A DNA stretch of 51,250 bases, taken from assembly GCA_030432155.1 (NCBI GenBank), contig JAUIHQ010000002.1:1-51250 (forward strand), read 5' to 3'. The DNA is from a bacterium. Its GTDB lineage: Bacteria; Verrucomicrobiota; Kiritimatiellia; CAIVKH01. Positions within the stretch are counted from its first letter, which is position 1; each line of letters starts with the position of its first letter. The notes under the pieces are model-generated. The model worked only from the letters and a program-made list of their open reading frames with translations, was not told the DNA's origin and searched no databases. Made by a program: the position numbers and the translations under genes. This document shows, in pieces, positions 23,482-51,250 of the stretch.

Positions 23482-23985
23482 CAGACATCCTTTATGGGGG
23501 TTTCCCTTATGAATCATCCTGTCACGTCGCTATGAACGGGATCAACGAATTCTCCTTATTTTTCGTCTTTGCCGTTCACAAACCGCACACAAACAATACG
23601 TTAATCACGAATACTACATCTTGTGGTTTTTCACCTGATGAAATCTATGCGTGGTAGCCCTCGAAAAAGATTCACCGTTTCTTTTTTTTTCCCTTGTTCG
23701 CACAGCATCCGGTTCCTAGTGTCTGTCCGACACGAGGACGGCAGGTGAACAAACCGGCTGTTGATAAGATGTTAATAACTTGATTTGTACGATGTTGCGC
23801 AAGGAGAAGACCAGACGAATATCACCGGCCCTGATGCCCTGATTGCAAAGGCTTATCACCCGGTTTTTTCTGTTGGTCTCGGCGGCAACGCATGCGCCGG
23901 TTGGTTTCTCGTTCTTCCCCGTGTCTTCCGATGAGTACGAAGCGGAAACAATTTGTTTTTCGAAACAGGGGTTGGACGAACGTTG

Positions 23986-25341: not shown

Positions 25342-25464
25342 CCCGGCCGATGCACGCCCTGTCTCCTTCTTGCCCGGTTACCCGCACGGTCTGGTTCTCC
25401 GTTGTACCGTTTCAATCCGTCTTGTGTTCGCCGTTGATGAACCCCACAATAACCTGTCAATGGC

Positions 25465-25660
25465 TGTGGACGGATCGTGAATAACTCCGGCCGCTGTGGA
25501 CAACGGAATGTCGCCGACAGAATTGTCCACAGCCGGGACCGGCAGAAAAGAAGCTGTTTGCAGTATGTTTAATCATTGTTGTATCTATCAACAGGACATA
25601 ATAATAAGACGGATTACCCATATAGATACTTCCAGTATTCAGAGGGTTGTTGATAGACCC
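25465..25660. other. Candidate oriC: DnaA-box cluster plus an AT-rich unwinding region in the dnaA-dnaN spacer.
   Basis: TGTGGACGG (25465-25473), TGTGGACAA (25495-25503) and TTGTCCACA (25523-25531), plus weaker CTATCAACA (25585-25593) and TGTTGATAG (25648-25656). About 100 bp of AT-rich sequence lies between them. Confidence 0.6.
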
Positions 25661-25677
25661 GATTGGAGAAGCCATCC

Positions 25678-34673: not shown

Positions 34674-37469
34674 ATGCTTGTTTCTCGTTCATACAGACGG
34701 ACAGTTGTGCTGCTCCTCTGGGCGGCCGTTCTCGGCCTCAGGCCGGTTTCGGCTCAGGAAGGCATGGGGCCGGATGAAGTGTACCAGCTCGGGCTGACCC
34801 ACTTTACGTCCGGCAAATTTGCCGATGCCATACCGAACTTCGAGTATCTCATCGACATCTTCGGTAATGAACCTTCTCTGCAGGACGTGATCGAAGCCTC
34901 CTATTACGGACTCGGCTGCAGCCAGTACAACATCGGTCAATACACCGAGTCGATCGCGACCTTCCGTGACTACATCAAGAAGTTTCCATCCGCGAAGTTG
35001 CTCGATGAGGCGATGTTCCGGATTGCATCGGCTCACCAGGCTGTCGAGGCCTACGGTGATGCAGTCGACGCCTACCGCGAGCTGCTCGAGAAACAGCCGG
35101 ATTCCCTGTTCGCTGAAGATGCCGCGTTTCAGCTCGCTCTCTGCTACATGGCCGATGAGAATGCTTCCGCCGCCGCGAAGGCCTTCGCCTTTTTCGTCGA
35201 GACGTTTCCCCGATCCGACCTCAAGCCCCAGGCTTACGTGTTCATGGCCCGGTCCCAGCTTGATAACGGCGACTACAAAACCGCTCTCGATACACTGGTC
35301 AAGGTCGGAGAGTACGCCAACCGCTTCGAGCATGTCGTTCATGCAAACTTCATCGCCATGGAGATCGGCGATCTCGCGTTTGAGGATACCGAGTACCGCC
35401 TTGCCCTGAAGGCCTTCCGCCGCGTCCGTACCATGAATTCGCTGATTCGGCTTCAGGAGCGGCAGATCGACCGGACGGAACAGCAGCTTGCCTTTCTTTC
35501 CCGCCAGCGGGTGCGCCCCTCCGAGGTTGCTGAGCATTTCCGCAAGGAGCGGCGGCTGAGGATGTCGCTTTCCACGCTCAAGGACGCGCTTGAACAATTG
35601 AAGGAAACCCCCGACTACGATGCCGGGGTGTTCCACCGGATCGGACGTTGTTTCTACAGCATCGAACGCCTGTGGGAAGCGCGCACGGCCTATCGCCGTG
35701 TGATCGAGGAAGCAGACGATCCGGTGCTTCAGGAAGCGGCCGGGTTCGACCTGATCCTGACCCTGAGCCGGTTGCGCCGGTTTGATGAACTGATTGCCGC
35801 GGCCGATCAGTACCTCGACCGGTTCGGAGACGATCCTGAGCTGATTGAAAAGGGCCGGGTGCCTGCGGTGGCATTCATGCGGGCGGAGTCGTTCCTCAAT
35901 CGCGAAATGTTCGAGGCGTGCGAGACCGAAATGGCCAATCTGATGGAGGTGTATCCCGATCATCCCCGCATGCCGAGGATCCGGTTCTACCATGCGCTTT
36001 CGATGGCGATGCAGGAGAAGTTCAGTGAGGCGATTCCCGCGTTTGAGGAGTGGCTCAAGGATTATCCCGACCACCACGTGGCGTCCGAAGTGTCCTACTG
36101 GCTCCCGGTTTCGATGTTTTATGACAGCCGGTATGAACAGGCCATTCCTTTGCTCGACGCCTATGTGAAAGCCTACCCGATGTCGGTCTACACCCCGGAA
36201 GCGGCGTATCGTTCGGCCTTGTGCAAGTATGCGCTGGAGCGATACGGCGAGGCGGCGGAGGAATTGGATGCATGGCTGATCAACCATCCCGATCACCTGT
36301 TCAAATGGGAGGCCCGGGTGACGCTCGGTGATGCCCTGGCCGCGGAAGGTGAGCTGGAGCGGGCGGAGGAAGCCTACCGCTCGGTCACCGCGGAGGCGGG
36401 GCCGTTGCATTACCTGGCCATCAACCAGCTCAACAAGGTGTACAAGGCGCTGGATAGCGAAGAGGCGTATGTTTCGATGGCCAAGGTGCACATCGATTAC
36501 ATGCAGGCAAACCCGGAATCACCGAACATGGTGGAATCGGCCTTCCACGCGGGGTGGGCGCTCCGGCAGCTCGACCGGTCGGACGAAGCCCGCAGGCTGT
36601 ACTGGCAGACAATCAAGAAGTTCGGCGATCAACGGGACTGGGAAGGATTCCAGAAGCTGTTCGGTGATCTGCCCCTGTTGTACCGCGACGAGCCGGACGG
36701 CCGGTTGTATGCCGACTTTGTCGATGCGATGGAAGAGGCTCGCGAGGAAGGACACCGGGTGCTGCTTGCCCGCCTGGTGAAAGCCGAACTCGACAATCGC
36801 GGACGGGATGAAGCGGAGATCGCCGAGGAAATGCTGCGCCGGTTCCGCATCCAGGAATTCGGTCCTGAACTGCTGGCCTTTCTCGGAAACGCCCTGGTGA
36901 AAAGCGGCGATCCGGCGCAGGGGATGACCTTTCTGGAGTTGCTGCTGGAACAGCATCCGAATTCCATGTTTGCCGATGTCGCCTACGCCCGGAAAGCCGA
37001 AGCCCTGCTGGCGTCGGGCAACAACGAAGAGGCCCTGGCCTACGCGGATATTGCGGTTGCCCGTGCGACCGGGCCGGAACTGATGATGGAAGCGGTGTTT
37101 GTCCAGGGCCGTGCCCTGCAGGCGCTGGGGCGCAACGAGGAGGCGCTGGAGGCATTCCGCAATGTCCTGGCCAGCCGCGCCACCCCCCAGGCGCTGAAGC
37201 CGGAGGCGATGCTGGCCGCCGCGGCCTGTCATGAAGCGATGGATGAAACCGCCAAGGCCATCCCCTATTATCAACGCATTTACGTCATGTACCGCGCCTA
37301 TTCCGACGCCGTGGCGGAAGCCTACATGCGAAGCGCCCGGGCCTTCATCACGCTGCGCGACCGGGCATCCGCGATCAACACCTACCGGGAAATGCTGAAC
37401 ACGGAATCTCTGCAGGGCCGCCCCGAGCTCGAGGCAGCCCGGAAGAAACTTGCGGAGCTGGAGTCATGA
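34674..37469 (+). CDS. Large periplasmic TPR-repeat protein (931 aa), first gene of the ExbBD-VWA operon.
   Basis: Signal MLVSRSYRRTVVLLLWAAVLGLRPVSAQE, then many YbgF-like TPR units (e.g. GKFADAIPNFEYLI, GQYTESIATFRDYIKKFP). Confidence 0.85.
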   Translation: MLVSRSYRRTVVLLLWAAVLGLRPVSAQEGMGPDEVYQLGLTHFTSGKFADAIPNFEYLIDIFGNEPSLQDVIEASYYGLGCSQYNIGQYTESIATFRDYIKKFPSAKLLDEAMFRIASAHQAVEAYGDAVDAYRELLEKQPDSLFAEDAAFQLALCYMADENASAAAKAFAFFVETFPRSDLKPQAYVFMARSQLDNGDYKTALDTLVKVGEYANRFEHVVHANFIAMEIGDLAFEDTEYRLALKAFRRVRTMNSLIRLQERQIDRTEQQLAFLSRQRVRPSEVAEHFRKERRLRMSLSTLKDALEQLKETPDYDAGVFHRIGRCFYSIERLWEARTAYRRVIEEADDPVLQEAAGFDLILTLSRLRRFDELIAAADQYLDRFGDDPELIEKGRVPAVAFMRAESFLNREMFEACETEMANLMEVYPDHPRMPRIRFYHALSMAMQEKFSEAIPAFEEWLKDYPDHHVASEVSYWLPVSMFYDSRYEQAIPLLDAYVKAYPMSVYTPEAAYRSALCKYALERYGEAAEELDAWLINHPDHLFKWEARVTLGDALAAEGELERAEEAYRSVTAEAGPLHYLAINQLNKVYKALDSEEAYVSMAKVHIDYMQANPESPNMVESAFHAGWALRQLDRSDEARRLYWQTIKKFGDQRDWEGFQKLFGDLPLLYRDEPDGRLYADFVDAMEEAREEGHRVLLARLVKAELDNRGRDEAEIAEEMLRRFRIQEFGPELLAFLGNALVKSGDPAQGMTFLELLLEQHPNSMFADVAYARKAEALLASGNNEEALAYADIAVARATGPELMMEAVFVQGRALQALGRNEEALEAFRNVLASRATPQALKPEAMLAAAACHEAMDETAKAIPYYQRIYVMYRAYSDAVAEAYMRSARAFITLRDRASAINTYREMLNTESLQGRPELEAARKKLAELES

Positions 37470-38374
37470 AGCGGGGTGTCGTCATCCTGATGCTGGCGGC
37501 GCTGCTGGCGCCGGTGTGGACGCGAACGGCTGCGGCCCAGGGAAGCCGTGAGCGGGGACTCGGACCGGTCACCCTCCTGACGCCGCGCGGTGAACTGGAC
37601 GTCCGACTGATCCGGCGCGAGCGCGATCTCGTGTGGGTGGACCGTGAAACCCGTTCCGGCACGTTCATCGAAACCGGGGTGCCGGTGAGCGACATCCAGG
37701 CCCTTCGCTACGAGGAACCGCGCCTGTTCAGCCTCGCCGAAGCCGCACGCACACCCTCGCAGATGCGTACGGTCATCGAGGCATTGGATAAGATGATTGT
37801 CCAGTTCTCCCCGTACCTTGACCTGCCGAACATCCCCTCCATCCGCGCGCTGGAGATCAAGGCGTCGCTACATGAAAGCCTCGGTGAATGGGACGAAGCG
37901 ATTGCCGCGTACCGGGAGCTGCTCGACAAGGATTACCGGCTGGAGGATCGCGACACCATCCAGTTGCGGACCGGCCTGGCCGGGGTCCGGGCGGGCCGGG
38001 CGGAGGAGGCGCTGGCCATGCTGGAAACCGCGGAGATTCCGGAGGACGATCTCGTGTTGATGTCGGACGTGCGGATGGCCCGGGCCCGGGCTCATACCGC
38101 CGCCGGCAAACCGGTGGAGGCGGTCAATGACCTGATGCACCTGGTGGTGTTTTATCCGTTTGTCCAGACCAACGAGGCCCGCGCCCTGTCCGCCGTCGTT
38201 CCCAATTACATCGAGCTGGGTGACTGGAGCGCGGTGACCCGAACCCTCGAGGCATTGAACGACCAATATCCCGATTCGCCCCATACCGCCTCGGCGGAGA
38301 TGGCGGTGGAACAGCATCGATCCGCACTGGAAGAAGAACAAGCACGGGCGTTGCCCGACATGCCCGAAGAATGA
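37466..38374 (+). CDS. Periplasmic TPR-like protein (302 aa).
   Basis: ATGA overlap with the upstream TPR gene. Signal MKRGVVILMLAALLAPVWTRTAAAQ. TPR-like GEWDEAIAAYRELLDKDY. Confidence 0.75.
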   Translation: MKRGVVILMLAALLAPVWTRTAAAQGSRERGLGPVTLLTPRGELDVRLIRRERDLVWVDRETRSGTFIETGVPVSDIQALRYEEPRLFSLAEAARTPSQMRTVIEALDKMIVQFSPYLDLPNIPSIRALEIKASLHESLGEWDEAIAAYRELLDKDYRLEDRDTIQLRTGLAGVRAGRAEEALAMLETAEIPEDDLVLMSDVRMARARAHTAAGKPVEAVNDLMHLVVFYPFVQTNEARALSAVVPNYIELGDWSAVTRTLEALNDQYPDSPHTASAEMAVEQHRSALEEEQARALPDMPEE

Positions 38375-38389
38375 CATGAGGACACCATC

Positions 38390-39169
38390 ATGAAACGAAC
38401 CCTGATGACATGCATACTGGCCGCCGGCATCGGCATACTCGGGGGCCTGACCCTGAATGCCTATGCCCAGGAGGCCGAAGCCGCCGCGGCCCCGCAGAAG
38501 ACAACCCTGTTTGACCTGATCGCCGCCGGCGGTTGGGCGATGTGGCCGCTTGGCGCGTTGTCCTTTGCGATGATCGCCATGGCCACGATCAACTATCAAA
38601 AGGTCAGCGAGAAGAAATTGATTCCGCAGGCCGCGCTGGGCCAGATCAAGGCCGCCGCCGACCAGCAGAATGCGCGACAGGTCTATTCCATCGCGACCAA
38701 TGTCGACAGTCTCTTCACCAATGCCCTCGCCGCGGGATTGCGGAAGTTCAATCTCGAGGATCCGGCGGAGAGCAAACACAGCGTTGAGGATGCCATCAGC
38801 GAAGCGGTGTCGCGTGAGGAATCCCAGATCGGGTTCTGGATCAACTTTCTCTCGCTGATTGCGGCGGTGTCTCCGATGGTGGGACTGCTCGGTACGGTCA
38901 GCGGCATGATCGGCGCCTTCCAGAAAATCGGCGCCGGGGGCATGGGCAAACCGGAGTTGCTGGCCGGGGATATCGGCCAGGCGCTGATCACCACCGCCAC
39001 CGGCCTGATTATCGCCATCCCCGCGATGTTCTTCTTCTTCCTGTTCCGCAATTCGCTGAATCGCCTGATTCAGAAAGCCGAAGAGGAATTTTCCTACGTG
39101 CTGGATGACCTCACTGGCACCGGCATGGGTCTGATGGATGCCGAAGACGTGGAAGAGGTTGAAGGGTAA
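38390..39169 (+). CDS. exbB: MotA/TolQ/ExbB proton-channel protein.
   Basis: Signal-like N-terminus, then GLLGTVSGMIGAFQKI...IGQALITTATGLIIAIPAMFFF, typical of ExbB/TolQ. Confidence 0.9.
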   Translation: MKRTLMTCILAAGIGILGGLTLNAYAQEAEAAAAPQKTTLFDLIAAGGWAMWPLGALSFAMIAMATINYQKVSEKKLIPQAALGQIKAAADQQNARQVYSIATNVDSLFTNALAAGLRKFNLEDPAESKHSVEDAISEAVSREESQIGFWINFLSLIAAVSPMVGLLGTVSGMIGAFQKIGAGGMGKPELLAGDIGQALITTATGLIIAIPAMFFFFLFRNSLNRLIQKAEEEFSYVLDDLTGTGMGLMDAEDVEEVEG

Positions 39170-39205
39170 GGAGCGGGAACCGCCGTACCCGGCAGGATAT
39201 CGACG

Positions 39206-39667
39206 ATGAAGCTGAAGCACCGCAACAATCCGGATCTCGACATCGACATGACGCCGATGATCGACTGCGTCTTCCTGTTGCTGATCTTCTTCATGTGCGT
39301 GGCGTCGATGTCCAAGGTGGATCTGACCCCGGAATTGGAGCTCCCGGTGGCGCCCAAGGCGTCCATCCCCGAGGATCTGCGGGCCCGCGGCGTGATCAAC
39401 ATCCTGCCCATCGGGGCCGAGACCAGCGCACAGGAAATTGTGACCGAGGATTCGCCGTTCATGGTGTCCGGACGGCTGACCGACGACAAGGGCTTGAGCC
39501 GGGCCATTTCTGAAAAGCTCGCGCAGGAACCGGATTTGCGGGTGTATATGCGGATCGACCGCAACGCGGATTTCGGACTGGTGCGCCGCGGGATCAAGGC
39601 CTGCGCCGAGGCCGGGGTGTACGACATCATTTTCGCATCCTACCAGAGCTCGGGAGGCGGAGGCTAA
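39206..39667 (+). CDS. exbD: ExbD/TolR family protein (paralog 1).
   Basis: DIDMTPMIDCVFLLLIFFM with the conserved TM Asp, and a periplasmic ExbD fold. Confidence 0.9.
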   Translation: MKLKHRNNPDLDIDMTPMIDCVFLLLIFFMCVASMSKVDLTPELELPVAPKASIPEDLRARGVINILPIGAETSAQEIVTEDSPFMVSGRLTDDKGLSRAISEKLAQEPDLRVYMRIDRNADFGLVRRGIKACAEAGVYDIIFASYQSSGGGG

Positions 39668-39669
39668 CC

Positions 39670-40110
39670 ATGAAGATTCGCCGCGCAACCGAGATTCCGC
39701 TGAAGATCGACATGACGCCGATGATCGATGCGGTGTTCCTGCTCCTGATCTTTTTCATGGTCACCACCACCCTCCACCGGCAGGAAGCGGATATCAGCTT
39801 TGCCTTGCCCGGGGTGGCCCAGCAGGACGAACCGGTGGAAATTCCCGACGAGCAGATCATCGAGATTTATGGCGACGGCGTGGTGATGCTGAACGGGCTT
39901 CAGTATGATCCTCCCGGCGTACCGGACATGCCGGAGCTGGTTGAAACCCTCACCCGCTTCAAGGCGACCGCCGATGCAAACAAGGTCGAAGCGATGATCA
40001 CCATCGCGCCCGATGCCGACGTGAAGCATCAGCGGGTGGTCGATGTGCTGAATGCCTGCGCGGCGGCGAAGATTGCCAATGTAACCTTTTCCGTGGACGA
40101 GGAGAGCTGA
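39670..40110 (+). CDS. exbD: ExbD/TolR family protein (paralog 2).
   Basis: KIDMTPMIDAVFLLLIFFM with the conserved TM Asp; 2-nt gap to paralog 1. Confidence 0.9.
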   Translation: MKIRRATEIPLKIDMTPMIDAVFLLLIFFMVTTTLHRQEADISFALPGVAQQDEPVEIPDEQIIEIYGDGVVMLNGLQYDPPGVPDMPELVETLTRFKATADANKVEAMITIAPDADVKHQRVVDVLNACAAAKIANVTFSVDEES

Positions 40111-40112
40111 CA

Positions 40113-41144
40113 ATGCTCAGGCAACTGTTCTCCATCTGGAACCGGCCGGATCACGGCGATCGAAAATCGCCGCTCACCGCGGTGATCGTCAGCATCGTGT
40201 TTCACATTCTCCTGCTGTTCGGAGCCGGGTACCTGACGGTGATGGTGCTGCAAAGCCGGGAAAAAGTGATGTTCGAGGCCAAGAAGCCTCCGTCGATTCC
40301 CGCCCGCAAGCTCGAACACAGCATCCGGGTCAAGCAGATGCAGCAGCAGGTGCGCAAACCCCAGATCCTTCAGCGTCTGGTCTCCCAGGCTCCCAGTGCC
40401 GTTGCGTTGCCTGAGCTCCCGAAGATGGATGCGCCGGATATCCGCAACATGAGGGACACCCCGATCCTCAACAACAGCCAGAGCATGCTCGGTCAGCTCG
40501 GTCGGGACGGCGGCGGCCTCGGCCGCGGCATGACCGGGGGCGGCGGGTATTCTGATGCGAAGTTCTTTGGCCAGAATGTCCGCACCCGCGCGGTGTGCAT
40601 CCTGTTCGACTGCACCGGCAGCATGTATTCCAAGGGCGTGGTTACGGACGTCAAGCGTGAGGCGTCACGCATGCTTGAGGAATTGAATCCCGCCACCAAG
40701 TTCAACCTCATTGCCTTCGTGGACGGCGCCGAAGGCGTGACCCCAAGCCTCGTGTTCGCCATTCAGGAGAACAAGGAGAAGGCCATCGCCTGGCTGGATA
40801 CCATCCAGGAAAACCGACAGGGCAACCGCAGCGGCTATTCCGGCAGTACCCCCGACCAGGCGATTCGTATGGCGGTGGATATCGGCGCGGACACGATCTT
40901 TCTGCTGACCGACGATTTTCCGAACCTGTCAAAAGTAGTGAACGGCAACCGGGAGAGGATTGATGACCATGCCGATCAGCTCGAGGATTTCATCCGCGGG
41001 ATCGAAACCCAGTACGGACGTTCGGTAAAGATCAACCCCATCCTCTACAAGCCCAACCAGGGCCGATCCGGCGATGCATCCCGGGACTATTGGAAAAAAA
41101 TCGCCCGCATCACCGGCGGCAAGATGCAGGTCATCGAAGACTGA
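40113..41144 (+). CDS. TonB-position protein: TonB-like SxxxH signal anchor, Pro/Gln-rich linker, and a C-terminal VWA (MIDAS) domain.
   Basis: Anchor VIVSIVFHILLLFGAGYL (compare E. coli TonB LLSVCIHGAVVAGLLY). VWA: AVCILFDCTGSM (DxTxS), GSTPDQAI, IFLLTDD. No TonB C-terminal-like sequence recognisable. Confidence 0.75.
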   Translation: MLRQLFSIWNRPDHGDRKSPLTAVIVSIVFHILLLFGAGYLTVMVLQSREKVMFEAKKPPSIPARKLEHSIRVKQMQQQVRKPQILQRLVSQAPSAVALPELPKMDAPDIRNMRDTPILNNSQSMLGQLGRDGGGLGRGMTGGGGYSDAKFFGQNVRTRAVCILFDCTGSMYSKGVVTDVKREASRMLEELNPATKFNLIAFVDGAEGVTPSLVFAIQENKEKAIAWLDTIQENRQGNRSGYSGSTPDQAIRMAVDIGADTIFLLTDDFPNLSKVVNGNRERIDDHADQLEDFIRGIETQYGRSVKINPILYKPNQGRSGDASRDYWKKIARITGGKMQVIED

Positions 41145-41274: not shown

Positions 41275-44200
41275 CTACTCCGCTTCCCGCCACCGGATCC
41301 GGTAGAAGCGGGAGGTGGATGAATCGGTGTTGGTTTCGACGTACACCATGGATGACCCATCGCCGGTCACACTCATGAATCCGGTCGGCTCCCACGATTC
41401 ATTCGTGCCCAGGCCGGAGGCGGCCATCACGTCGTATACACTGTTGGACAGTCCGGGCCATTCGAGGTGAAACGTACGGTCGTTGGTGTTGACCGAGGAT
41501 CTGGCCTCTCGCCCGAACCAGTCCGCGGGGTTCAGGGGATTGTGACCGGCGGCAAGCTCCTCTCCGTCCGTCTGACCATCGCCGTCGCTGTCCGGTATTC
41601 GAGCTCCCGTTTCCCCGGCATCGGCAATCCCGTTTGCATTGAGATCTTCGGCCAGGTCGGGAATCCCGTCGCCATCGGTATCGAAGGTATCGAGGCGTAG
41701 CTGAAAATATTCCAAGGACTCAAGGTCCCCATCTCCGTTGCCCAACGGAACCTGGTATGCGCCGTTCAAGCCTCCCCCGTCGGCGGTGGCATAGGAGGCC
41801 ACGCTCAGGTACAGGTTCGACGGAATGCGTCCGAAAACCTGCACAAGATCGATCGCGCCTTCCAGATATCCGCCGTTGTTGAACGGGGTGGCCGCGGGAT
41901 GGCTGAGGTCCATGGCGTTGTTAATGAACCAGCCCTCGAAATCACTGTCGTTTTCGTCGGCCAGAAAATGCAGCCTCCCGAACACCCGGCCCGATTTGGC
42001 CCACGGCGCCGACAGGTCGGGATCCGGGTCGTCGGTCACGAAGATGAAGTGGTCGTTGCCTTCTCCCGCATCCTCGGTGGCGACATAAAGAAGCTTTCCG
42101 TTGAAGTCGGCATACAGGTGCAGGACATTCGTGGCGCGAACCGTCGCCGCTTCGGCGTCCGACAGGATGCCGTCGAGCACATAGGTTTTGAGCGGGACTT
42201 CCTGCTGGTTTCCGCCGGAGGTTTCGAACACCACCGCCCCGGTGGCGGGATAGAAGCGAAGGCACTCATTGCTGTCGATGTTGATGTCGAGGTCCTGCGA
42301 GGGCGGGACCTGGTGGGTCGGCAGGATGGACCCGCCGTCGGCGCTGCCGTAAATCCCCACCGCCATCCAGATCGATTCCGGAACCGTGCCGTATTGTTCC
42401 TCGAGATTGATCACCCCTTCGAGCACACCGCCGTTGGGTCCGGTCTTGGCGTTGGCCGATGCCCGGGTGCGGTACCACGAAACAAAGTCATTGTCGTTTT
42501 CGTCGGCGAGGAACGGGCCGTCCAGCGCGATCGTCCCGTTTTTGTTCCACAGCTCCACCTCGACGCCGGCCACGGCCTGCTCGTCATCGAGAAAGATAAA
42601 GTGGTCGTTGCCCTCGCCGGCATCGACGGTGGCGACATACAGAGCCTTGTTCGTGGCGTCGTAGGCTGCATAAAGAGAAATGCCGTTGTTGTGCGCGATC
42701 TGGGGGACTCCTTCGTCAAGCACACCGTCGAGCACGAAGGACCCGAGCGGGTGGAGTCCGCCCGTCCCGGTGCCGGTATCAAAGAACGATTCAAAAGCCG
42801 CGCCGAGCTCCACGGCGTCGGCCGAGGTCGCGGTTGCGCCGATCACGATCCGGCAGCGGGTGTTCTGGGGCAGTAGCGCGTCAGGGTTGAAAACCATGCG
42901 CGTATTCTCATTGAACCAGGAGAACACCCCCGCCGTTTCAGGTTCCATGGAAAACGCGGCCTCGACCGAGCCGGTCTCCATGGACCGGTCGAACTCGATT
43001 ACGATGGACGAAGCCCGGTCAACGCCGGTGGTGTCATGACGGGGGCTGATCGAGATAACGGACGGTGCAAGGGCGATGAGTCGGTCTGACGGGATGTAGA
43101 TGCGGGATTCATACCCGCCGAGGGTCAACGCCACCAGGCCCGGTCCGCCCCCGCTTCCCACCGTCAGGGTGTCGTTGGTGTTGAAGATGTTGACCAGCAC
43201 GGTTCCGTTGGAATGGATCACCGCCGGACCGGATCCGTTATAGATCGCTTCCCGGGAGCCCGAGGCGGTGTTCAGGGCGACGAGAACGCCGTTGGTGTCG
43301 AGGATGCGCTCATACACGTACAGGCCGCTCCCGGCAAAGTCCTGCCACCGTTCCTGGAAGACCCCGCGGCGTAGCTCCGGATACGCCTCGCGCAACAGGT
43401 TCAGGGTGCGGACATGACGGTACAGGGGATGGGTCATATCGAAGTTATCGCCGAGGGACGGGCCGTACTCGAACTCTCCGTCGAACATGTCCTCCCGGTC
43501 ATAGGGATCATTCCCGCCGTCGAACCCCTGCTCCGTTCCGTAGTAGAGGCACGGCACCTGGAGGTGGGTGTAGAGAAACGTCAGGGCGGGATAGAGTCGG
43601 GTTTGGTTGCCGTTCAGCTTGTCCGCGGCAAGCGCCCGCGACATATCGTGATTGTCGAGAAACATGATAAGCTGGTGACGGGCCTCGGGGTCGTAGTCGC
43701 TCAGCCAGCCGTGACGATCGGATATCTGTGAAGTGTTCTGACCGCGGATGAACACATTCTCCATCGTGTTGAGCATGGGAAAATACAAGGCGGACGGAAA
43801 CCGGTTGGTCCCGGTGAAGGCGCCGACTTCGCTATCGAGCCCGCGCCACGCTTCGGCATAGCTGAGAAAGTTGGTTTTCCCGAGGGAGGAGGCATGGTCC
43901 TCGATGGCGGGCAGAAAATACTCCCAGAAATCCATCTCGATGTGACGGGCGGTGTCGACGCGGAATCCGTCGCAGTCCGTGGCCTCGATGAGGCCCTTGT
44001 AGATCCGCACCAGGTCGTCGCGTACCTGTTGATCCTCGGTGCGGATGCCGTCCAGGCCGGAGAAGTCGCCGAGGATCGACTGTGTCGCATCATCCCAGTT
44101 CTGGACATTCCCGTAGTTGTGAAGCCGGGACAGATCATCGAAGGGCGGGGCATGACGGCGGTTGCTGTTGCGCCAGCGCAGGTTGTACCCGTTGATGTTG

Positions 44201-44742
44201 AACGAGGGGAAACCGAAGTCGGTGGAGTCGGCAAGGTCCCCGAGATGGTTCTGGACCACATCGATGATCACATAGATCCCCCGGGCGTGGGCGGCATCGA
44301 TGAAATTCCGGAGATCCTCGAGCGTGCCCCAATGAGGATCGATCATGTTGAAATCGGTGGCGGCGTACCCGTGAAAACTCCCGCGTACATTCTTCACCAC
44401 CGGGCTGATCCATACCGCCTTCGCGCCGAGCATCTGCAGGTAATCGAGCTTCTGCTCCAGCCCTTCAAAATCCCCGCCGTGGACCGATACCGTGCCGTAG
44501 GGATTGGTGTCGGCATCCGGGTTGTCGTCGTTGTTCGCCGGGTCCCCGTCATAAAACCGGTCCGTCATCACCTGGTAAATGTTGATGTCCCGCCAATCGG
44601 TGGGCGACGGGGTGAAGGCGAACCCCGGGGTATCGTTGGTGCGGGATGGAAGGGTCGACCAGGTTTGGGCGAACCCGGCGCCTGCGATCGCCGAAAAACT
44701 GACCGCAACGCAAAGCGCCCGGCGCTGGATGCCTGAATACAT
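41275..44742 (-). CDS. Secreted multidomain GH13 alpha-amylase-family glycoside hydrolase (1155 aa).
   Basis: Signal MYSGIQRRALCVAVSFSAIAGAGFAQ. GH13 regions DVVQNH, GFRVDTARH, YAEAW, FLDNHD. A tandem ~185-aa domain pair carries GEGNDHFIF. Thrombospondin-type-3-like DTDGDGIPD/DSDGDGQTD repeats. Confidence 0.9.
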   Translation of the reverse strand: MYSGIQRRALCVAVSFSAIAGAGFAQTWSTLPSRTNDTPGFAFTPSPTDWRDINIYQVMTDRFYDGDPANNDDNPDADTNPYGTVSVHGGDFEGLEQKLDYLQMLGAKAVWISPVVKNVRGSFHGYAATDFNMIDPHWGTLEDLRNFIDAAHARGIYVIIDVVQNHLGDLADSTDFGFPSFNINGYNLRWRNSNRRHAPPFDDLSRLHNYGNVQNWDDATQSILGDFSGLDGIRTEDQQVRDDLVRIYKGLIEATDCDGFRVDTARHIEMDFWEYFLPAIEDHASSLGKTNFLSYAEAWRGLDSEVGAFTGTNRFPSALYFPMLNTMENVFIRGQNTSQISDRHGWLSDYDPEARHQLIMFLDNHDMSRALAADKLNGNQTRLYPALTFLYTHLQVPCLYYGTEQGFDGGNDPYDREDMFDGEFEYGPSLGDNFDMTHPLYRHVRTLNLLREAYPELRRGVFQERWQDFAGSGLYVYERILDTNGVLVALNTASGSREAIYNGSGPAVIHSNGTVLVNIFNTNDTLTVGSGGGPGLVALTLGGYESRIYIPSDRLIALAPSVISISPRHDTTGVDRASSIVIEFDRSMETGSVEAAFSMEPETAGVFSWFNENTRMVFNPDALLPQNTRCRIVIGATATSADAVELGAAFESFFDTGTGTGGLHPLGSFVLDGVLDEGVPQIAHNNGISLYAAYDATNKALYVATVDAGEGNDHFIFLDDEQAVAGVEVELWNKNGTIALDGPFLADENDNDFVSWYRTRASANAKTGPNGGVLEGVINLEEQYGTVPESIWMAVGIYGSADGGSILPTHQVPPSQDLDINIDSNECLRFYPATGAVVFETSGGNQQEVPLKTYVLDGILSDAEAATVRATNVLHLYADFNGKLLYVATEDAGEGNDHFIFVTDDPDPDLSAPWAKSGRVFGRLHFLADENDSDFEGWFINNAMDLSHPAATPFNNGGYLEGAIDLVQVFGRIPSNLYLSVASYATADGGGLNGAYQVPLGNGDGDLESLEYFQLRLDTFDTDGDGIPDLAEDLNANGIADAGETGARIPDSDGDGQTDGEELAAGHNPLNPADWFGREARSSVNTNDRTFHLEWPGLSNSVYDVMAASGLGTNESWEPTGFMSVTGDGSSMVYVETNTDSSTSRFYRIRWREAE

Positions 44743-44825
44743 CTCCCCATCCTACTCACCGATGGCCGGAAAGTAAAACGATCCACGCGGTGGATGTTTT
44801 CCAGCCTGATCCTTGGCGACGTCTC

Positions 44826-44880
44826 GGCGCTCAAGGGACTGAGCGCCCTACCTGGTAGGGCGGCGAGTCCCTTCGCCGCC
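44826..44880. promoter_or_regulatory. Highly structured GC-rich element with mutually exclusive hairpins and complementary loops.
   Basis: GGCGCTCA-AGGGAC-TGAGCGCC and GGCGGCGA-GTCCCT-TCGCCGCC have exactly complementary loops. A central CGCCCTACC/GGTAGGGCG stem competes with both. Confidence 0.45.
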
Positions 44881-44936
44881 GCGTTGCGGCGATCACCTGG
44901 ATGGTGAAATGATATCAAAGCCGCTAAGGATCACGG

Positions 44937-44986
44937 TTTTCCAGGGATTGGAAAAACCGCCGGGCCTTTTTCCAACCATTGGAAAA
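44937..44986. promoter_or_regulatory. Two copies of a 19-bp palindrome TTTTCCA-N5-TGGAAAA, 31 bp apart.
   Basis: 44937-44955 (TTTTCCAGGGATTGGAAAA) and 44968-44986 (TTTTCCAACCATTGGAAAA), 65 nt upstream of ATG 45051. Confidence 0.55.
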
Positions 44987-45050
44987 TGGCGGGCGGCCTC
45001 CGCGCCTCCCCTCTTCCAACCGGAATCACTTCTGTGGTATCCATGGCGGT

Positions 45051-45890
45051 ATGAAGGAAATCTGGATCATGTGGCGTCATCCGAAGATGGTCGCCTGGTG
45101 TCTGTTGACCGCGGTGATGATACTCATCGCGCGGCTTCCGTTTTTCCTCGTGCCGATCGTCCCCTACCATCTTGATTTCAATCCCGGGGTGGCGCTGATT
45201 CCCCTGTCCGGGGTGTTCTTCGGCCCGGCGGGGGCGTGGGGGGCCGCGTTGGCCACCGGGACCGGGGACCTTCTGTACGGCATCGGGTCGGTGATGACTC
45301 CGTTCCGGGTGATTGGATCGTTCCTGTTCGCCCTCGCATCGAAGAAGTTATGGAGCCTTTGTCTGACCCGTTCCGACCTGGTGCCGGAAATGATCCCTAC
45401 CTGGCGGCGCACCATGCGCTACATGGTCGTGCTCGCGCCGGGCTGCTTCATCGATGCCGCGTGGAACGGGTTTGGTTCCGCGGTGAACGGACTGTATCCC
45501 TTCACCTACATCGCGGGGATCGTGCTGGTGCATCACCTGTTGTTCTGTGCGGTGCTGGGTCCGGTACTCTACCGGTTCTTTGCCCGGGAGCTGGTGCCGA
45601 ACTTCGGGCACTGGCGGATGATCATGCACGGTGAGGAGCAGGGGTTCCGGCTTGCCTTTCATAACGGCGCCATCATCTTCATTGCGGCGATCGGGGGGTG
45701 GCTGGCGCCGTTCCTGGTCAGCGGGCTCGTCTACGGAGTCTGGCCCTTCCGCCACTATTACATCGGCACCATCGTCGCCCCCCAGGTGTATCTCGCCGCC
45801 CTACCCTTCCTCCTGGCGCAGATCTACACATTGGCCATTGCCCGGGGAGAAGCAGGACATCACCCTCAGCCCCCTCCTGCTACGGATTAA
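45051..45890 (+). CDS. Polytopic membrane protein, ECF-transporter S-component-like N-terminal half.
   Basis: FNPGVALIPLSGVFFGPAGAWGAALATGTGDLLYG resembles the GxxGP...G..G..D motif region of S-components. About 7-8 TM helices. Start is ATG 45051, or 45069/45087. Confidence 0.55.
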   Translation: MKEIWIMWRHPKMVAWCLLTAVMILIARLPFFLVPIVPYHLDFNPGVALIPLSGVFFGPAGAWGAALATGTGDLLYGIGSVMTPFRVIGSFLFALASKKLWSLCLTRSDLVPEMIPTWRRTMRYMVVLAPGCFIDAAWNGFGSAVNGLYPFTYIAGIVLVHHLLFCAVLGPVLYRFFARELVPNFGHWRMIMHGEEQGFRLAFHNGAIIFIAAIGGWLAPFLVSGLVYGVWPFRHYYIGTIVAPQVYLAALPFLLAQIYTLAIARGEAGHHPQPPPATD

Positions 45891-46129
45891 TACCCCCCGG
45901 ACTTGAGCCCCATCTCATCCTTCACCTGTCCCTCCACCTTCACTATTCGATATGTTAATTTAAAGTATGGCCCCGAACGGCTTGTAAATTCACATCCGCT
46001 TTAATCACGCGGGCACTGATATCCCGCAGCCTGACCCCTATAATCTTATTTTTCGCCTCCCGTTTCAATTCTAATTGCATCAGGCAAATCTGTTCTCGTA
46101 CGATTTACGATATAGAGGGAAAACAAGGT

Positions 46130-47269
46130 ATGATTATGAATCAAATTCTATCGGTTACCCGAGCCTTGTCCGACCTGCCGTTATTGGTGCTGGTATTTCT
46201 TATCTCTGTTACCACAGACGTTTCCATTGCGGATGAGGTGGACGTTTCATCAAGTCAACTCTATGACACCAACAAATTCACCGGATTGATGGCCAATCAT
46301 GCGGAAGACATCGCAGAACTCGAACAGACATTCGTTGATCATCAATATTCCTATCTGCCCATTGCTCCACCATTCAGTGATTTTGTTCTGGATCAACCTG
46401 CCAATGCTCCCGTGATACCGTTCAGCGTCGAAGGGTTTCCCTCATCATTTAATGAGGGCTTGATTGGCTATTACGAGAACAGCGTCGTTGTCTATCCGGT
46501 AACCATTATGGAGGATGCCTCCACTCGGTATACGGTGTTTTTGAATGAAGACGGACAGGCCATCTATTCCATTGCCCCTGTTTCTGGATATGACCCTTTC
46601 GCCTACCTGAAATATCGGTTTCCCTCCCTGTATACAGGGACAACACACTGGTTAACGGTTCAGGAGTACGAGGACGTCTATGACCCCTCCAGAATCCGCA
46701 TGAAGGCGACACTTATTCCCGATGATTATCTTGAGTTTTACTTGTATGCCGAGCAACAGGTTCAGGCATTTCTACCGTCAATTGGATTTGGAGGAGGCGG
46801 AATGGCCATGATGTCAGGAGGCGGTGGTTCCGACAGCAACATCGTCTTTACCAGCATTCATCTGGCGACCAACGGGCTGGCCATGTGCGTGGCCTATCCA
46901 ACGAATTTCACGAACAGATTGGATATCTTTTCCTGCAACTACATCGAAAAGGAAGCCTGGGAGGTTGCAGCAGGTCAACTTTCTACGACGGGAACGAATG
47001 TCATTACATGGGTGGAAACAAATTCATGGCTGAACGTTCCTCCATTCTATCGCAATTACGCCGCCGCAAATGCGGATATTGATACGGATGGTGATGGCCT
47101 CTCCGACCCCCGTGAAAATATGGTCCATCTGTCCGACCCGACCAATGTTGAAACGGATGGCGACGGCATGAACGATTATGACGAAGTCCAGCAGGGATTT
47201 AATCCTGCCGTTTCAAACCTACCATCAAGAATCACAATTCATTTTCCCGTGAATGGACGTGTTTTGTAA
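46130..47269 (+). CDS. Secreted hypothetical protein with C-terminal thrombospondin-type-3-like Ca-binding repeats; lower-GC island.
   Basis: Signal/TM LPLLVLVFLISVTTDVSIA. Gly-rich linker GFGGGGMAMMSGGGGSD. DIDTDGDGLSDP and ETDGDGMNDYDE. The TAA stop overlaps the ATG of the next gene (TAATG). Confidence 0.65.
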   Translation: MIMNQILSVTRALSDLPLLVLVFLISVTTDVSIADEVDVSSSQLYDTNKFTGLMANHAEDIAELEQTFVDHQYSYLPIAPPFSDFVLDQPANAPVIPFSVEGFPSSFNEGLIGYYENSVVVYPVTIMEDASTRYTVFLNEDGQAIYSIAPVSGYDPFAYLKYRFPSLYTGTTHWLTVQEYEDVYDPSRIRMKATLIPDDYLEFYLYAEQQVQAFLPSIGFGGGGMAMMSGGGGSDSNIVFTSIHLATNGLAMCVAYPTNFTNRLDIFSCNYIEKEAWEVAAGQLSTTGTNVITWVETNSWLNVPPFYRNYAAANADIDTDGDGLSDPRENMVHLSDPTNVETDGDGMNDYDEVQQGFNPAVSNLPSRITIHFPVNGRVL

Positions 47270-50200
47270 TGAGTAACCCAGCATGCAAAGATAATCTTAA
47301 GCAATCCAGGCTGATTCTAGTCGCGGTTGCCTCTATACTATTGTTCTCGGACGCGACCATTTACGCAAATGTCGTTGATACACTGGTCGTGCCGATCAAT
47401 GACAGCCAGCCCGTATCACAGGACGAGACCTGTAGTAGCGAAATTCTCGTAAAAACAATGAACGTCAAACCCGTGTTACCGCAAGGTGCAACAATTACCT
47501 CCTGCGTATTAAATGTAGATTTCATCGATGATGCATTCAAAACCGCCGGAGGGGCGATTGACGGAGGTTTCGATAACTGCGAACCGAGCAGTGGATATAC
47601 AGGCATTGACATGCTTCCATATATCGATACCGCCGTGGGCGAATTCGACATCGAATTATGGGACAAGACCGATCAAACCCCAAGCGGACAAAACGAGGTC
47701 AGCATTCAGGGGAGCGTAACATACATGTACACACTCGACCCGATTGTTCCGCCAATGGATGATACAAACGCGCTACTTGAAACCATTGTTTTTGACGACT
47801 GTAAAAAAGGAGACTCTCCTCTCAAGAAGCTTGGGTGCGGAGCTTGCGGAGACGATGGCAACCCTCAAGCGTATGTAATTGTTGCTAATTTCAACGTATT
47901 AATCATGGACACACCCATCTGGCATGAAACGGAAGTCGGCCCCCCACTGGAATTGAAAATGATTTTCAGTAATTACGCCGAGACAAATTCTGCGAAAACC
48001 TTCGGCCCCAAATGGGACCATAATTGGAACTGTTACGTCAGAATGATCGGCCCCGGCACGAATTCGGTGCGACTGCCATCGGGAAGCATCGTCTCATTTA
48101 CCTCTACGGGGGGAAGTCCGTGGTCTCCACCAAGCACTCTGACAGGCGAATTGATCTTCACCAACAGCGTGTTTCAATACATCAAGCCGGATGGTCAGGT
48201 GCTTCAATATGCGGTATCATTGGGAGATACCAACGTATATCTTCTTGACCGAATATGGGATGCTTGGTCAAACACGGTTGAAGTCAGTTATACGAATGAC
48301 CGTCCATTTCAAGTAACGCAAATCAACCCCGACACGGGAAGATACCTTGAGTTTTCATATACAGGCACGAATGCCCATGCCGATACTGTAAACACAGAAT
48401 CCAACGCTCTCAGGACGGCAACTTTTTCATACGATTCAGCAGGATTTCTGACCAACGTCATAGACATGGGGGAATACGGCTATGTCTACACTTATACCAA
48501 TGGCTTTATGGAGGGCGTCTACAAGGAATCCGTATCAGGCACCAGACGAATGGGATTCTCGTATAGCTCAACTCCCGACACGTGGGACGCTACGAACTCG
48601 CACATTCTGACAACCACGGATGCCGAAGATCGAACAAGAAAATTCACCTGGAAGTTCGGGCTGGTCACAGAAGACACGGAATATCTGTCGCAATCCAACA
48701 GGGAGTACTACGTCATTGACTTAAAAACAAACAAAGGAGCCGTTGTCATTCAACATGGAAACGTCAACGGTGCGTCAAGGTATTATTCTTTTCTCTCCAC
48801 AGAACACATACATGTCTACGAAGACAGAGACGGGGCTGAATGGGATTACACCCGCAACGACAATCACCAGATTACTTCCATCACGGACCCGCTGAATAAC
48901 GTATGGAGCAACGTCTATGACACCAACGGGATCGACCTTCTTTACGTTTCGCCCCCCGAAGGAGAACCACAAGCCTATTGGACCTATGTATCAGGCAAAC
49001 ATGCTGTTGAGACGGAAACCAACGCCTTAGGCAAGGTAACATTGTACCAGTACAATGAACTTGGTCTTGTTACGAACTGGCATGATGGCCGAACAACGAG
49101 TTCGCTTTTTTACGACTCGGAAGGTCGTCTTCTTTCATGGCACAGGAATGGAATCCTGATGGAGACCAATCAGTATGACGCCTTCGGTCGGCTGATCTGG
49201 CAACAGAACTCGGCGGGGCTGATCATGACCAACGCATATGACGATCTGAACAGGCCATTATCTCAGACCTATAACAACAACGGTGAAACATCGACACAAT
49301 CAGTGCAGTATGATTGCTGTTTCATCGACCAAACCGTAGATCGGAAAGGACGGATATCTTACTACACCTATAATGACCTTGGCTGGATGCTGGAAGAGAC
49401 CAACCCGAAAGGGCTGACGAATTACTACGGGTACGGATACCACGGCCAGCCCGAATCCATTTCCAACGTTCTGGAACACGAAACCAGAGAATATACGCCT
49501 GAAGGATGGATTAAGAGACGCGAATTGCCTGAACGCTCCTTTGATGGAACTCATGCGGAGAATTTCTTTTATGACAATGAAGGGCTTCTTACCAAGCAAC
49601 AGGGTCTTGCGGGTGAATTTTACAAGTACGAGTATGATGACCTTGGTCAATTGACGGCAGTCTATGTTCCTGACGGAAGCACCCTCGATTTCGGGACCGA
49701 AGAGTATGTCCGCTATGCCACGAACCGCTACGATCCCAGAGGTCGAGTCGTCTGGTCTACGGACATTCGTGGCCTCGAAACAACCAATACCTACAATGAC
49801 CTCGGCCTGATGACGGGACGCAATCATCCCGACTCAACCACAGAAGCGTGGACTTACAATCCCTGGGGGCAGATTACCAGTTACAAAGACAGGGCGGATC
49901 AGATTGTCAGCAACCTCTATGACAGCGTTGGAAGGCTGATTGAACAGATAGATGCAAGGGGCTTCAGCACTCACTTCGGTTATTCCGACGCTGATTTCGT
50001 TACGTCTGTCAGCAATGAGGTACTGGAGATTGCATGGACGTTTGATTATGACGATGAAGGTCGCATCACCACTATCAATAATCCTGATCAAACGCAGGAA
50101 ACCCGTGCCTATGACACCGTGGGTTCGGTTACTCAATTTGTCCGTGGAGGCATCACGGTTGTCTATGAATATGATGACCTTGATAACCTTACGGCAGTCC

Positions 50201-51250
50201 TTGTTGAAAACACGCAGGATGTTGTCGGGGGAGGCGGTGGCGGAGGCGGACCTCCGACTTCCACCAATGAAACCGAATGGCTACTGGTTGTCAGCAATCG
50301 GTATGATGTATTGGGTAGAAAGATCTACTCGGAAACATCGGATGGACTTACGTTTACAAACACTTTCGACAACTGGGGTGAACTAAATACCCGCTTCTGG
50401 CCCGAAGGATTGAGTGATTCTTTTGAATACGGAGACAGAGGATTAACCAATTGGACAGACAGGCTTGGCATCGAGAACAAACTGGCTCTTGATTCTCTTG
50501 GAAGAGTGATTGGCATTACCGATGGAGAAAGCCGAACCATCCAATTTGCTTACCTGACCAATGGCATTGACCAACTGATTACGCTCATTGACGGCAACAG
50601 CAACACGACATCATGGACCTATGATGAGTATGGGAATCCATCCCAGAAAACCTATGCCGACTCTTCGCAGGAAACCTATTCCTTTGATGTCCTGAACCGC
50701 ATCACGAACAAACTGGACGCTTCGGGAATCGACACGGCCTACGGGTATGATGAGGTTGGAAATCTGACCTCCATCCAATACGGAAATGACCCCCTGATTG
50801 AGTTGGGATATGACGCTCTCAACCGTCGCACAAACATGACCGATGGTGTTGGAACGACGACATGGGAATATGACTCAATGGGAAGAATCACTTCGGAGTC
50901 GGGTCCGTTCAATCAGGATGTAACAGCATCCTATGATTCACTTGGAAGAATGACCAACCTCACCCTGAGTGGTTATTCATGGGATTGGGAGTATGATGTT
51001 CTTGGAAGAATCACATACGTGGACGGCCCCGAAGGCTTGTACGGCTTTTCCTATCTGGATAACGGCTTCCGACGGGTTTCGGTATCATGGCCAAACCAGA
51101 TTGGAGCAAGTTACCAGTATGACTCCCTGAAGCATCTCACCAATATTGATTGCGATGAAATGTTCTCCATCGGCTATCAGTATGACGATGGAGGAAGGCG
51201 AACCAATGAAGTATGGGAAAGTGGTCGCTCCATTTCCTACGGCTATGATG
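47269..51250 (+). CDS. RHS/YD-repeat protein (polymorphic-toxin-type shell), 5' partial in window, runs off the right edge. Not in the supplied ORF track.
   Basis: Hand translation from ATG 47269 found no stop through 51250. N-terminus MSNPACKDNLKQSRLILVAVASILLFSDATIYA. More than 20 YD repeats, e.g. YDAFGRLIW, YDSVGRLIEQ, YDDEGRITTI, YDVLGRKIY, YDSMGRITSE, YDVLGRITYV. Confidence 0.85.
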   Translation, partial: MSNPACKDNLKQSRLILVAVASILLFSDATIYANVVDTLVVPINDSQPVSQDETCSSEILVKTMNVKPVLPQGATITSCVLNVDFIDDAFKTAGGAIDGGFDNCEPSSGYTGIDMLPYIDTAVGEFDIELWDKTDQTPSGQNEVSIQGSVTYMYTLDPIVPPMDDTNALLETIVFDDCKKGDSPLKKLGCGACGDDGNPQAYVIVANFNVLIMDTPIWHETEVGPPLELKMIFSNYAETNSAKTFGPKWDHNWNCYVRMIGPGTNSVRLPSGSIVSFTSTGGSPWSPPSTLTGELIFTNSVFQYIKPDGQVLQYAVSLGDTNVYLLDRIWDAWSNTVEVSYTNDRPFQVTQINPDTGRYLEFSYTGTNAHADTVNTESNALRTATFSYDSAGFLTNVIDMGEYGYVYTYTNGFMEGVYKESVSGTRRMGFSYSSTPDTWDATNSHILTTTDAEDRTRKFTWKFGLVTEDTEYLSQSNREYYVIDLKTNKGAVVIQHGNVNGASRYYSFLSTEHIHVYEDRDGAEWDYTRNDNHQITSITDPLNNVWSNVYDTNGIDLLYVSPPEGEPQAYWTYVSGKHAVETETNALGKVTLYQYNELGLVTNWHDGRTTSSLFYDSEGRLLSWHRNGILMETNQYDAFGRLIWQQNSAGLIMTNAYDDLNRPLSQTYNNNGETSTQSVQYDCCFIDQTVDRKGRISYYTYNDLGWMLEETNPKGLTNYYGYGYHGQPESISNVLEHETREYTPEGWIKRRELPERSFDGTHAENFFYDNEGLLTKQQGLAGEFYKYEYDDLGQLTAVYVPDGSTLDFGTEEYVRYATNRYDPRGRVVWSTDIRGLETTNTYNDLGLMTGRNHPDSTTEAWTYNPWGQITSYKDRADQIVSNLYDSVGRLIEQIDARGFSTHFGYSDADFVTSVSNEVLEIAWTFDYDDEGRITTINNPDQTQETRAYDTVGSVTQFVRGGITVVYEYDDLDNLTAVLVENTQDVVGGGGGGGGPPTSTNETEWLLVVSNRYDVLGRKIYSETSDGLTFTNTFDNWGELNTRFWPEGLSDSFEYGDRGLTNWTDRLGIENKLALDSLGRVIGITDGESRTIQFAYLTNGIDQLITLIDGNSNTTSWTYDEYGNPSQKTYADSSQETYSFDVLNRITNKLDASGIDTAYGYDEVGNLTSIQYGNDPLIELGYDALNRRTNMTDGVGTTTWEYDSMGRITSESGPFNQDVTASYDSLGRMTNLTLSGYSWDWEYDVLGRITYVDGPEGLYGFSYLDNGFRRVSVSWPNQIGASYQYDSLKHLTNIDCDEMFSIGYQYDDGGRRTNEVWESGRSISYGYD

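Follow-up and report, generated by a model that had tools for sequence, protein, structure and literature searches.

A contig-end RHS polymorphic-toxin gene of a Kiritimatiellia bacterium, probably Sec-exported and coupled to a TSP3-repeat partner gene

Contig JAUIHQ010000002.1 (assembly GCA_030432155.1), from an uncultured Kiritimatiellia bacterium and analysed here over its whole 51,250 nucleotides (the window), ends with the 5' three-quarters of a gene encoding an RHS polymorphic toxin (47269–51250, + strand), an assignment that we hold with high confidence. The explanation that best accounts for the locus, to which we give a probability of about 0.8, is that this toxin is Sec-exported and that its gene is co-transcribed and translationally coupled with the one located directly upstream (46130–47269, + strand), which encodes a 379-amino-acid (aa) partner carrying thrombospondin type 3 (TSP3) repeats. 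Considered alone, the window gene is an ordinary, truncated RHS polymorphic-toxin gene, and this kind of toxin is already known; the added value lies at the level of the family, whose partner protein and N-terminal module (hereafter N-module) are undescribed.

The reading frame is open from 47203 and its earliest start codon is the ATG at 47269, from which 1327 codons run without a stop up to the contig end; given the local base composition, the chance of such a stretch is ~7e-31. A first-pass annotation of the same DNA, made from the letters alone, had obtained this ~1327-codon frame by hand translation, and the computed translation likewise holds no in-frame stop. The gene is hidden in the list of open reading frames (ORFs), where only short ORFs appear between 47.3 and 51.25 kb, because the list drops frames that run off the end, as this annotation had supposed. 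The dense YD repeats that it had read are recovered by hidden Markov models (HMMs), with matches to the Pfam family RHS_repeat (PF05593; E=3.7e-59, 196.5 bits for a cutoff of 22) and to TIGR01643 YD_repeat (E=7.7e-41). The match to the NCBIfam model RHS_core is partial (115.6 bits for a cutoff of 2000), and the sequence matches found in the PDB, the best of them being Rhs effectors of type VI secretion systems (T6SS), span aa 765–1327. The open frame, the HMMs and the relatives described below all support its proposal of an RHS/YD polymorphic-toxin gene cut by the end of the sequence.

As the window is the entire contig, the gene is cut by the assembly and not by the window. The first-pass annotation had suggested extending the contig. 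No extending sequence was found either in two contig collections (exact 53-nt searches of genome_contigs and metagenome_contigs, 0 matches) or in four public metagenome runs (biofloc and another metagenome), which contain fragments identical to the window at a depth of ~3–4x, none of them reaching past 51219.

A homology search retrieved 27 proteins that share 39–49% identity with the RHS protein over 95–100% of the query, most of them 1777–1903 aa long; beyond these, the scores drop sharply to generic RHS proteins displaying at most 26% identity. The family occurs in 7 of ~185,000 species-representative genomes, mostly metagenome-assembled genomes (MAGs) of Kiritimatiellia, and four of the seven copies in these reference genomes are located at contig ends or cut by them. 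Indeed, RHS genes are often found at contig ends because their repeats and cassettes break assemblies. In the alignment of the 28 sequences, conservation stays at ~0.7 for ~360 columns beyond the last residue of the window protein and then falls to ~0.35, and the conserved family residues are kept throughout the window protein. The 26 complete relatives run 458–597 residues (median 535) beyond this last residue. Their conserved part ends in a canonical RHS core (…RDPxGE…NLYxFVxNxP…DPxGL), the endings of the 26 full-length members following the pattern RDPxGE…NLY…D[PAL]xG[LRQ], and is followed by C-terminal tips of 112–248 aa that are unrelated to one another. Ten tips were scanned: one is Colicin M-like (P0006; Colicin_M, E=7e-19), one is a lipase/Tle3-like alpha/beta hydrolase (P0018), one is weakly PIN-like and the remainder have no assigned family. 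Judging from its sequence, the Colicin_M tip would have a bacterial-envelope target, the lipid II pathway.

Downstream of the relatives' genes, ORFs of 122–134 aa overlap or abut the RHS stop codon, two of them with lipoprotein signals (lipoboxes). Orphan C-terminal RHS cassettes also occur, with cores of their own and tips that differ. This is the classical architecture of polymorphic-toxin loci, and the variable C-terminal toxin and immunity gene that had been expected beyond the contig end are thus seen in the relatives as cores, tips and small ORFs. By comparison with them, the window copy would lack ~458–597 residues, which would complete the shell and add the core autoprotease and toxin tip. 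In one relative's locus (L008, 1–18778), arrays of at least five orphan RHS C-terminal fragments flank the full-length gene on either side, with small ORFs after each fragment; they represent a large toxin-cassette reservoir. Another observation on the relatives concerns a conserved, Ig-like-looking insert of ~60 residues (WTGGxxTVAGxVNYxAGTVTVNGV…TNVxVSAGTNxLTAVYxGP) present in P0002–P0027 at alignment columns ~1550–1600, beyond the end of the window protein; it lies in the C-terminal portion of the shell and precedes the core motif by ~250 residues.

The N-terminus of the RHS protein displays the features of an exported protein. Residues 1–33 (47269–47367, + strand) form a predicted Sec-type signal peptide, with a basic n-region, the hydrophobic stretch LILVAVASILLF and a cleavage-like site between IYA and N, cleavage being predicted after IYA33. 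AlphaFold2 models a helix at aa 10–24 with low-confidence flanks, and the family alignment shows equivalent leaders in all complete relatives, in agreement with the signal-like N-terminus proposed earlier.

The leader is followed by a family-specific N-module (aa ~34–200; 47368–47868, + strand), which all members of the family possess. The AlphaFold2 model of aa 1–520, computed with the family alignment (pLDDT 80.1, pTM 0.78), comprises the leader helix, a beta-sandwich (aa 35–156), a low-confidence linker (aa 157–199) and, from aa ~200, unbroken beta-hairpins. The N-module is marked by the invariant cysteines C55 and C104, a VDD motif and the motif DGSFxIxLxDxT, whereas its linker carries PPxIxDTN, is cysteine-rich and ends in the invariant C190-x-x-C193…GSPQ directly before the shell. 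Against Pfam, the N-module gives only noise at E up to 10, and a profile search of the PDB gave no sequence match. An Ig-like nature of this module, suggested by its strand pattern and by weak profile matches to Big_3_5 repeats in P0118, was not adopted. Among 1.84 billion cluster representatives, a profile search found the module in only 16 proteins, mainly fragments of the same RHS family. One of the exceptions is P0123, which belongs to a separate RHS family and combines a signal peptide, the same N-module, a significant match to DUF6531 (E=1.8e-14) and RHS repeats; with its DUF6531 following the N-module, P0123 confirms that this module is located immediately ahead of the start of the cocoon. 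At its locus (L016, 5001–11616), P0123 and the next gene are called as two adjacent genes, of 580 and 1621 aa.

The RHS chain is modelled as a cocoon already from aa ~200, so that aa ~201–1327 (47869–51250, + strand) would correspond to the start and body of a YD-repeat beta-cocoon that is cut by the contig end; the fold test covered the first part of this shell, i.e. the model of aa 1–520. In Foldseek searches, this model matches the T6SS Rhs cores 8qjd, 7q97, 7pq5 and 8cp6 (E~1e-12, over 330–420 columns) and, more weakly (E=1e-7 to 1e-4), teneurins, a teneurin-like protein and TcB/TcC cocoons, the latter at ~1e-4. A sub-threshold match to DUF6531 (PF20148; E=0.052) at aa 226–277 agrees in position with the layout of P0123. 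The first-pass annotation had set aside an unassigned N-terminal region of ~400 aa and proposed to examine it by structure prediction. According to AlphaFold2 and Foldseek, such a region does exist but is restricted to ~165 aa (~35–200), the prediction giving a beta-sandwich module to aa ~200 and then a divergent start of the shell.

Within the shell, a loop insertion of 23 residues, QDVVGGGGGGGGPPTSTNETEWL (aa 983–1005; 50215–50283, + strand), lies between two shell strands and is missing in all 27 relatives. It holds the Gly8-Pro2 stretch noticed earlier, which is real and located inside the repeat shell; its coordinates are, however, 50227–50256 (G987–G994 and P995–P996), slightly to the right of the ~50221–50250 first given. 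The glycine codons are mixed (GGG GGA GGC GGT GGC GGA GGC GGA), which argues against a homopolymer slip, and contigs from other public metagenome runs span the stretch without differences. The insertion is therefore a real, lineage-specific loop.

The partner gene, like the drop in GC content that precedes it, had not been mentioned in the first-pass annotation. Its stop codon overlaps the start codon of the RHS gene (TAATG). The protein, a member of the homolog family P0087–P0103, begins with a hydrophobic leader, carries two TSP3 calcium-binding repeats at aa ~316–358 (Pfam TSP3_bac, E=2.8e-07) and ends in a conserved tail. Its AlphaFold2 model (pLDDT 72) comprises a confident alpha/beta domain (aa 45–214), a glycine-rich disordered linker, an Fn3/Ig-like sandwich (aa 239–314), the TSP3 repeats and an unstructured tail. 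Foldseek found no fold match to this model in the PDB better than E=0.06, a PDB profile search matched only the TSP3 repeats, and exact look-ups of the protein with two alternative starts returned no record.

A gene with such a TSP3 tail is found directly upstream of the RHS gene in all 12 assessable loci (the window, L001, L003, L006–L012, L014 and L015). In every one of them, the product of the upstream gene has at its C-terminal end two TSP3 repeats plus the tail G[FT]DP…SN…V.I.FP.NG..LP, and the stop codon of this gene mostly overlaps the RHS start as ATGA. The protein bodies ahead of this end vary: they belong to the ~370–445-aa partner family, to LamG/HYR proteins or to giants of 1598 and 2089 aa. 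A functional link between partner and N-module is further supported by a Rosetta-stone fusion, P0116, in which a partner-like region (hhalign 98.3%, E=1.6e-14) and an N-module (97.9%, E=3.2e-13) occur in one chain. This protein of 1032 aa (L018, 5001–8099) carries TSP3 repeats, the N-module at aa 354–469 and a ~560-aa non-RHS C-terminus in which Pfam finds no match; the next ORF, which overlaps its stop codon, encodes a 316-aa protein with a signal peptide. P0116 may use the same delivery module to carry another payload.

The TSP3 repeat is less specific as a marker of the partner when taken alone, since it seems to be common in the secreted proteins of this organism. Among the genes of the contig, 41275–44742 (– strand) encodes a secreted alpha-amylase of 1155 aa with Big_5 and a TSP3 repeat; its assignment to the Type ISP restriction enzymes, in synteny with L003, was considered and rejected.

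How do these proteins compare with known systems? Zhang, de Souza, Anantharaman, Iyer and Aravind (2012; PMC3482391, Table 1) classified the RHS toxins that carry only a signal peptide as "T2SS/Sec-dependent" (T2SS, type II secretion system) and described lineage-specific globular domains after the leader. The window protein and its relatives share with this class the signal peptide, a lineage-restricted N-terminal domain and the RHS repeats, as well as, in the relatives, the toxin, the immunity gene and the cassettes. As judged from sequence and model, the RHS protein has a signal peptide without any other trafficking domain and a rare N-terminal domain, and would belong to this class. The N-module is not obviously any of the N-terminal domains named in that study (MAFB-N, MicroscillaN, APD1/2). 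The upstream TSP3-tail partner is not mentioned in PMC3482391, where neither TSP3 nor thrombospondin occurs. In the open-access literature, no description of the N-module or of an obligate TSP3-tail partner was found, and nothing relevant was found on TSP3 with Rhs or on Rhs or polymorphic toxins in Kiritimatiellia/Kiritimatiellota.

The beta-cocoon fold is shared with the T6SS Rhs effectors of solved structure, i.e. RhsA (7q97), Tre23-Rhs (7pq5), RhsP (8h8a), Tse5 (8cp6), Tse15 (8uxt) and the Rhs proteins of S. bongori and Advenella (8qja-d), as are, in the relatives, the RHS core ending and the encapsulated variable toxin. One could therefore ask whether the RHS protein is an effector of a T6SS or of another contact-injection system, with secretion genes located elsewhere and an upstream gene that is just an unrelated neighbour. 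All the closest solved structures are of this type, and a Tle1-like gene lies ~9 kb downstream of the relative at L006. T6SS Rhs genes may also lie far from the main cluster. However, identity to the solved T6SS Rhs structures is only 9–15%, and the window protein differs from these effectors by its Sec leader and its beta-sandwich N-module. No signature of PAAR, VgrG, clade domain or Eag chaperone was found in the RHS protein, whose N-terminus was searched at E up to 10, or in the scanned upstream ORFs; in particular, a Pfam scan of 33 ORF translations from the 47 kb upstream detected no T6SS, PAAR or VgrG, as noticed from the first. The cleavable-looking Sec leader, present family-wide among complete members, has no counterpart in T6SS effectors, which are loaded in the cytoplasm, and a TSP3-tail gene coupled in 12 of 12 loci is hardly an unrelated neighbour. 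We regard the contact-injection reading as quite unlikely.

Tc toxins offer another comparison, as their BC cocoons (TcdB2-TccC3, YenB/YenC) also combine an RHS cocoon with a separately encoded adjacent partner. The RHS protein could thus be Tc-toxin-like or teneurin-like, with a eukaryotic target or a role in adhesion, and its partner an A-component-like binding subunit; the weak Foldseek matches to teneurins and TcB/TcC, the adhesin-type domains of the partners (TSP3, LamG, HYR, Fn3-like) and the lack of an assigned family for most toxin tips would fit this reading. The window cocoon is, however, one polypeptide in which Pfam detects no SpvB, TcB N-terminal, beta-propeller, EGF or NHL domain. 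Nor does any upstream gene encode a TcA-like protein: TcA is a pore-former of ~2500 aa, whereas the window partner is a protein of 379 aa with TSP3 repeats. In addition, the Colicin M-type tip aims at a bacterial pathway, and the immunity-sized ORFs bearing lipoboxes and the arrays of orphan cassettes are hallmarks of interbacterial polymorphic toxin systems (PMC3482391). Altogether, the features that define T6SS Rhs effectors or Tc BC components, as far as tested, were not found in the RHS protein, and a Tc-like or teneurin-like nature appears unlikely.

A functional parallel is provided by WapA of Bacillus subtilis and Streptococcus suis, which acts from the Gram-positive cell wall. WapA is a signal-peptide-dependent, T6SS-independent RHS toxin involved in interbacterial competition (PMC12704120). 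Unlike WapA, the window RHS system has no wall-binding domain and has a separate partner protein. Furthermore, the host belongs to the Planctomycetes-Verrucomicrobia-Chlamydiae (PVC) group and its contig encodes a lipid A acyltransferase and ExbBD; therefore, unlike in the case of WapA, an outer membrane must be crossed.

The signal peptide and the lack of T6SS, PAAR and VgrG context fit Sec-dependent export and, together with the class defined in PMC3482391, support the delivery route that the first-pass annotation had advanced with caution. In the proposed mechanism, both the RHS protein and its partner would be exported across the inner membrane by Sec. The cocoon would enclose the C-terminal toxin, whose release would depend on the aspartyl autoprotease of the core, both toxin and core lying beyond the contig end. 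The conserved TSP3-plus-tail end of the partner would dock onto the N-module of the RHS protein, whereas its variable body (partner domain, LamG/HYR or giant adhesin-like) would anchor the complex to a surface or target it to one. Such docking, to which we give well under even odds, would take the place of PAAR/VgrG mounting in T6SS Rhs effectors, and the targets would most likely be neighbouring bacteria. A broader proposal, which we consider possible at similar odds, is that RHS cocoon toxins of Kiritimatiellia and other PVC bacteria are mounted or delivered, independently of any T6SS, by an undescribed two-component device made up of the TSP3-tail partner and the N-module. Its adhesin-like subunit (partner domain, LamG/HYR or giants of 1600–2100 aa) would be exchangeable and would choose the display site or the target cell.

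Several points weigh against the Sec-exported, partner-coupled toxin. The last codons of the partner (AAY GGN MGG AGG … ATGA) constitute a GGAGG-like ribosome-binding site for the RHS gene, so that the conservation of the tail could be partly maintained at the nucleotide level, although the third codon positions are the most variable overall. The link between partner and N-module is suggested by gene arrangements and by the P0116 fusion, and the partner is not universal for the N-module, since the P0123 locus has FtsX/OPT/ABC-transporter genes upstream and no TSP3 gene. The signal peptide was called by eye and from the AlphaFold2 helix, and the contig carries no secretion system that would take a ~200-kDa protein across the outer membrane. 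Finally, the core, toxin and immunity gene of the window copy are deduced from relatives that are only 39–50% identical, and, as most tips belong to no recognised family, the antibacterial role is read from a few tips and from the locus architecture.

The two-gene module stands out from its surroundings by its composition. The GC content is ~47–48% over 46130–51250 (partner and RHS genes) and ~60% over 1–45890. According to GC profiles of 100 nt and 1 kb, the boundary is an AT-rich intergenic region (45891–46129), where the GC content goes from ~60% to ~45% (0.61 at 45800 and 0.46 at 45900 in the 100-nt profile) and which presumably holds the promoter. As most relatives' loci match the GC content of their host (the exception being L008, 67% against 52%), the window copy, at 48%, looks recently acquired. 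The module was probably acquired horizontally, from a donor of lower GC content, into a chromosomal site ~20 kb from dnaA-dnaN.

The same abrupt shift from 60% to 48% at 45.9 kb could be taken as the mark of a chimeric artefact, two organisms having been joined by mis-assembly at ~45.9 kb, or of a decaying locus with a fragment of a dead gene, especially as the depth in public runs is low and the RHS gene has no end in the sequence. Against a chimeric assembly, the junction is spanned by an independent metagenome contig corresponding to 45820–46733, and none of the public fragments differs from the window. Moreover, 1327 stop-free codons and family residues retained all along the protein are unexpected in a dead gene, and the partner gene is intact and correctly coupled. 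An artefact is therefore highly improbable.

The remaining 46 kb consist of chromosomal housekeeping DNA with a GC content of ~60%. The upstream genes encode ABC transporters, the lipid A acyltransferase, a TPR-ExbB-ExbD-ExbD cluster and the alpha-amylase, and no PADLOC defence model matched. DnaA is 72–76% identical to the DnaA proteins of named Kiritimatiellia MAGs, which places the host in this group. As dnaA and dnaN are adjacent (23953–26769, + strand), the contig probably spans the region of the chromosomal replication origin; the minimum of the cumulative GC skew, at ~35–36 kb, does not coincide with dnaA. An operon-like series of genes (34674–41144, + strand), encoding a 931-aa TPR/YfiO-like protein, a TPR protein, ExbB, two ExbD and a weakly VWA-like protein, corresponds to a Tol/Ton-like cluster for energy transduction; in L007, an ExbB-ExbD-ExbD set resembling it is found near the RHS gene. 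The last gene with host GC content ahead of the acquired module is a 303-aa ORF (44979–45890, + strand) with a TTG start, a GC content at third codon positions of 0.79 and a hydrophobic C-terminal half, which matches no Pfam, NCBIfam or PADLOC model. Two near-perfect palindromes (44825–44881 and 44937–44986) are located between the amylase gene and this ORF, one with 28-nt arms 1 nt apart and the other with the arms TTTTCCAGGGATTGGAAAAA / TTTTTCCAACCATTGGAAAA 10 nt apart; they could be operators or terminators.

For annotation in general, this gene illustrates that ORF lists omitting end-truncated frames hide large genes at contig ends. From a biological point of view, RHS toxins are well understood under type VI delivery; for the route that signal-peptide RHS proteins take in double-membraned bacteria, the family provides a testable handle, with a strictly conserved two-gene unit, a Rosetta-stone fusion and partners in which a constant end is combined with adhesin-like bodies that can be exchanged. 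Polymorphic-toxin warfare is also documented by this family in Kiritimatiellia, a little-studied and mostly uncultured group. The new N-module and the strictly coupled partner suggest that this rare, Kiritimatiellia-centred family of Sec-type RHS toxins may rely on a T6SS-independent mode of mounting or targeting.

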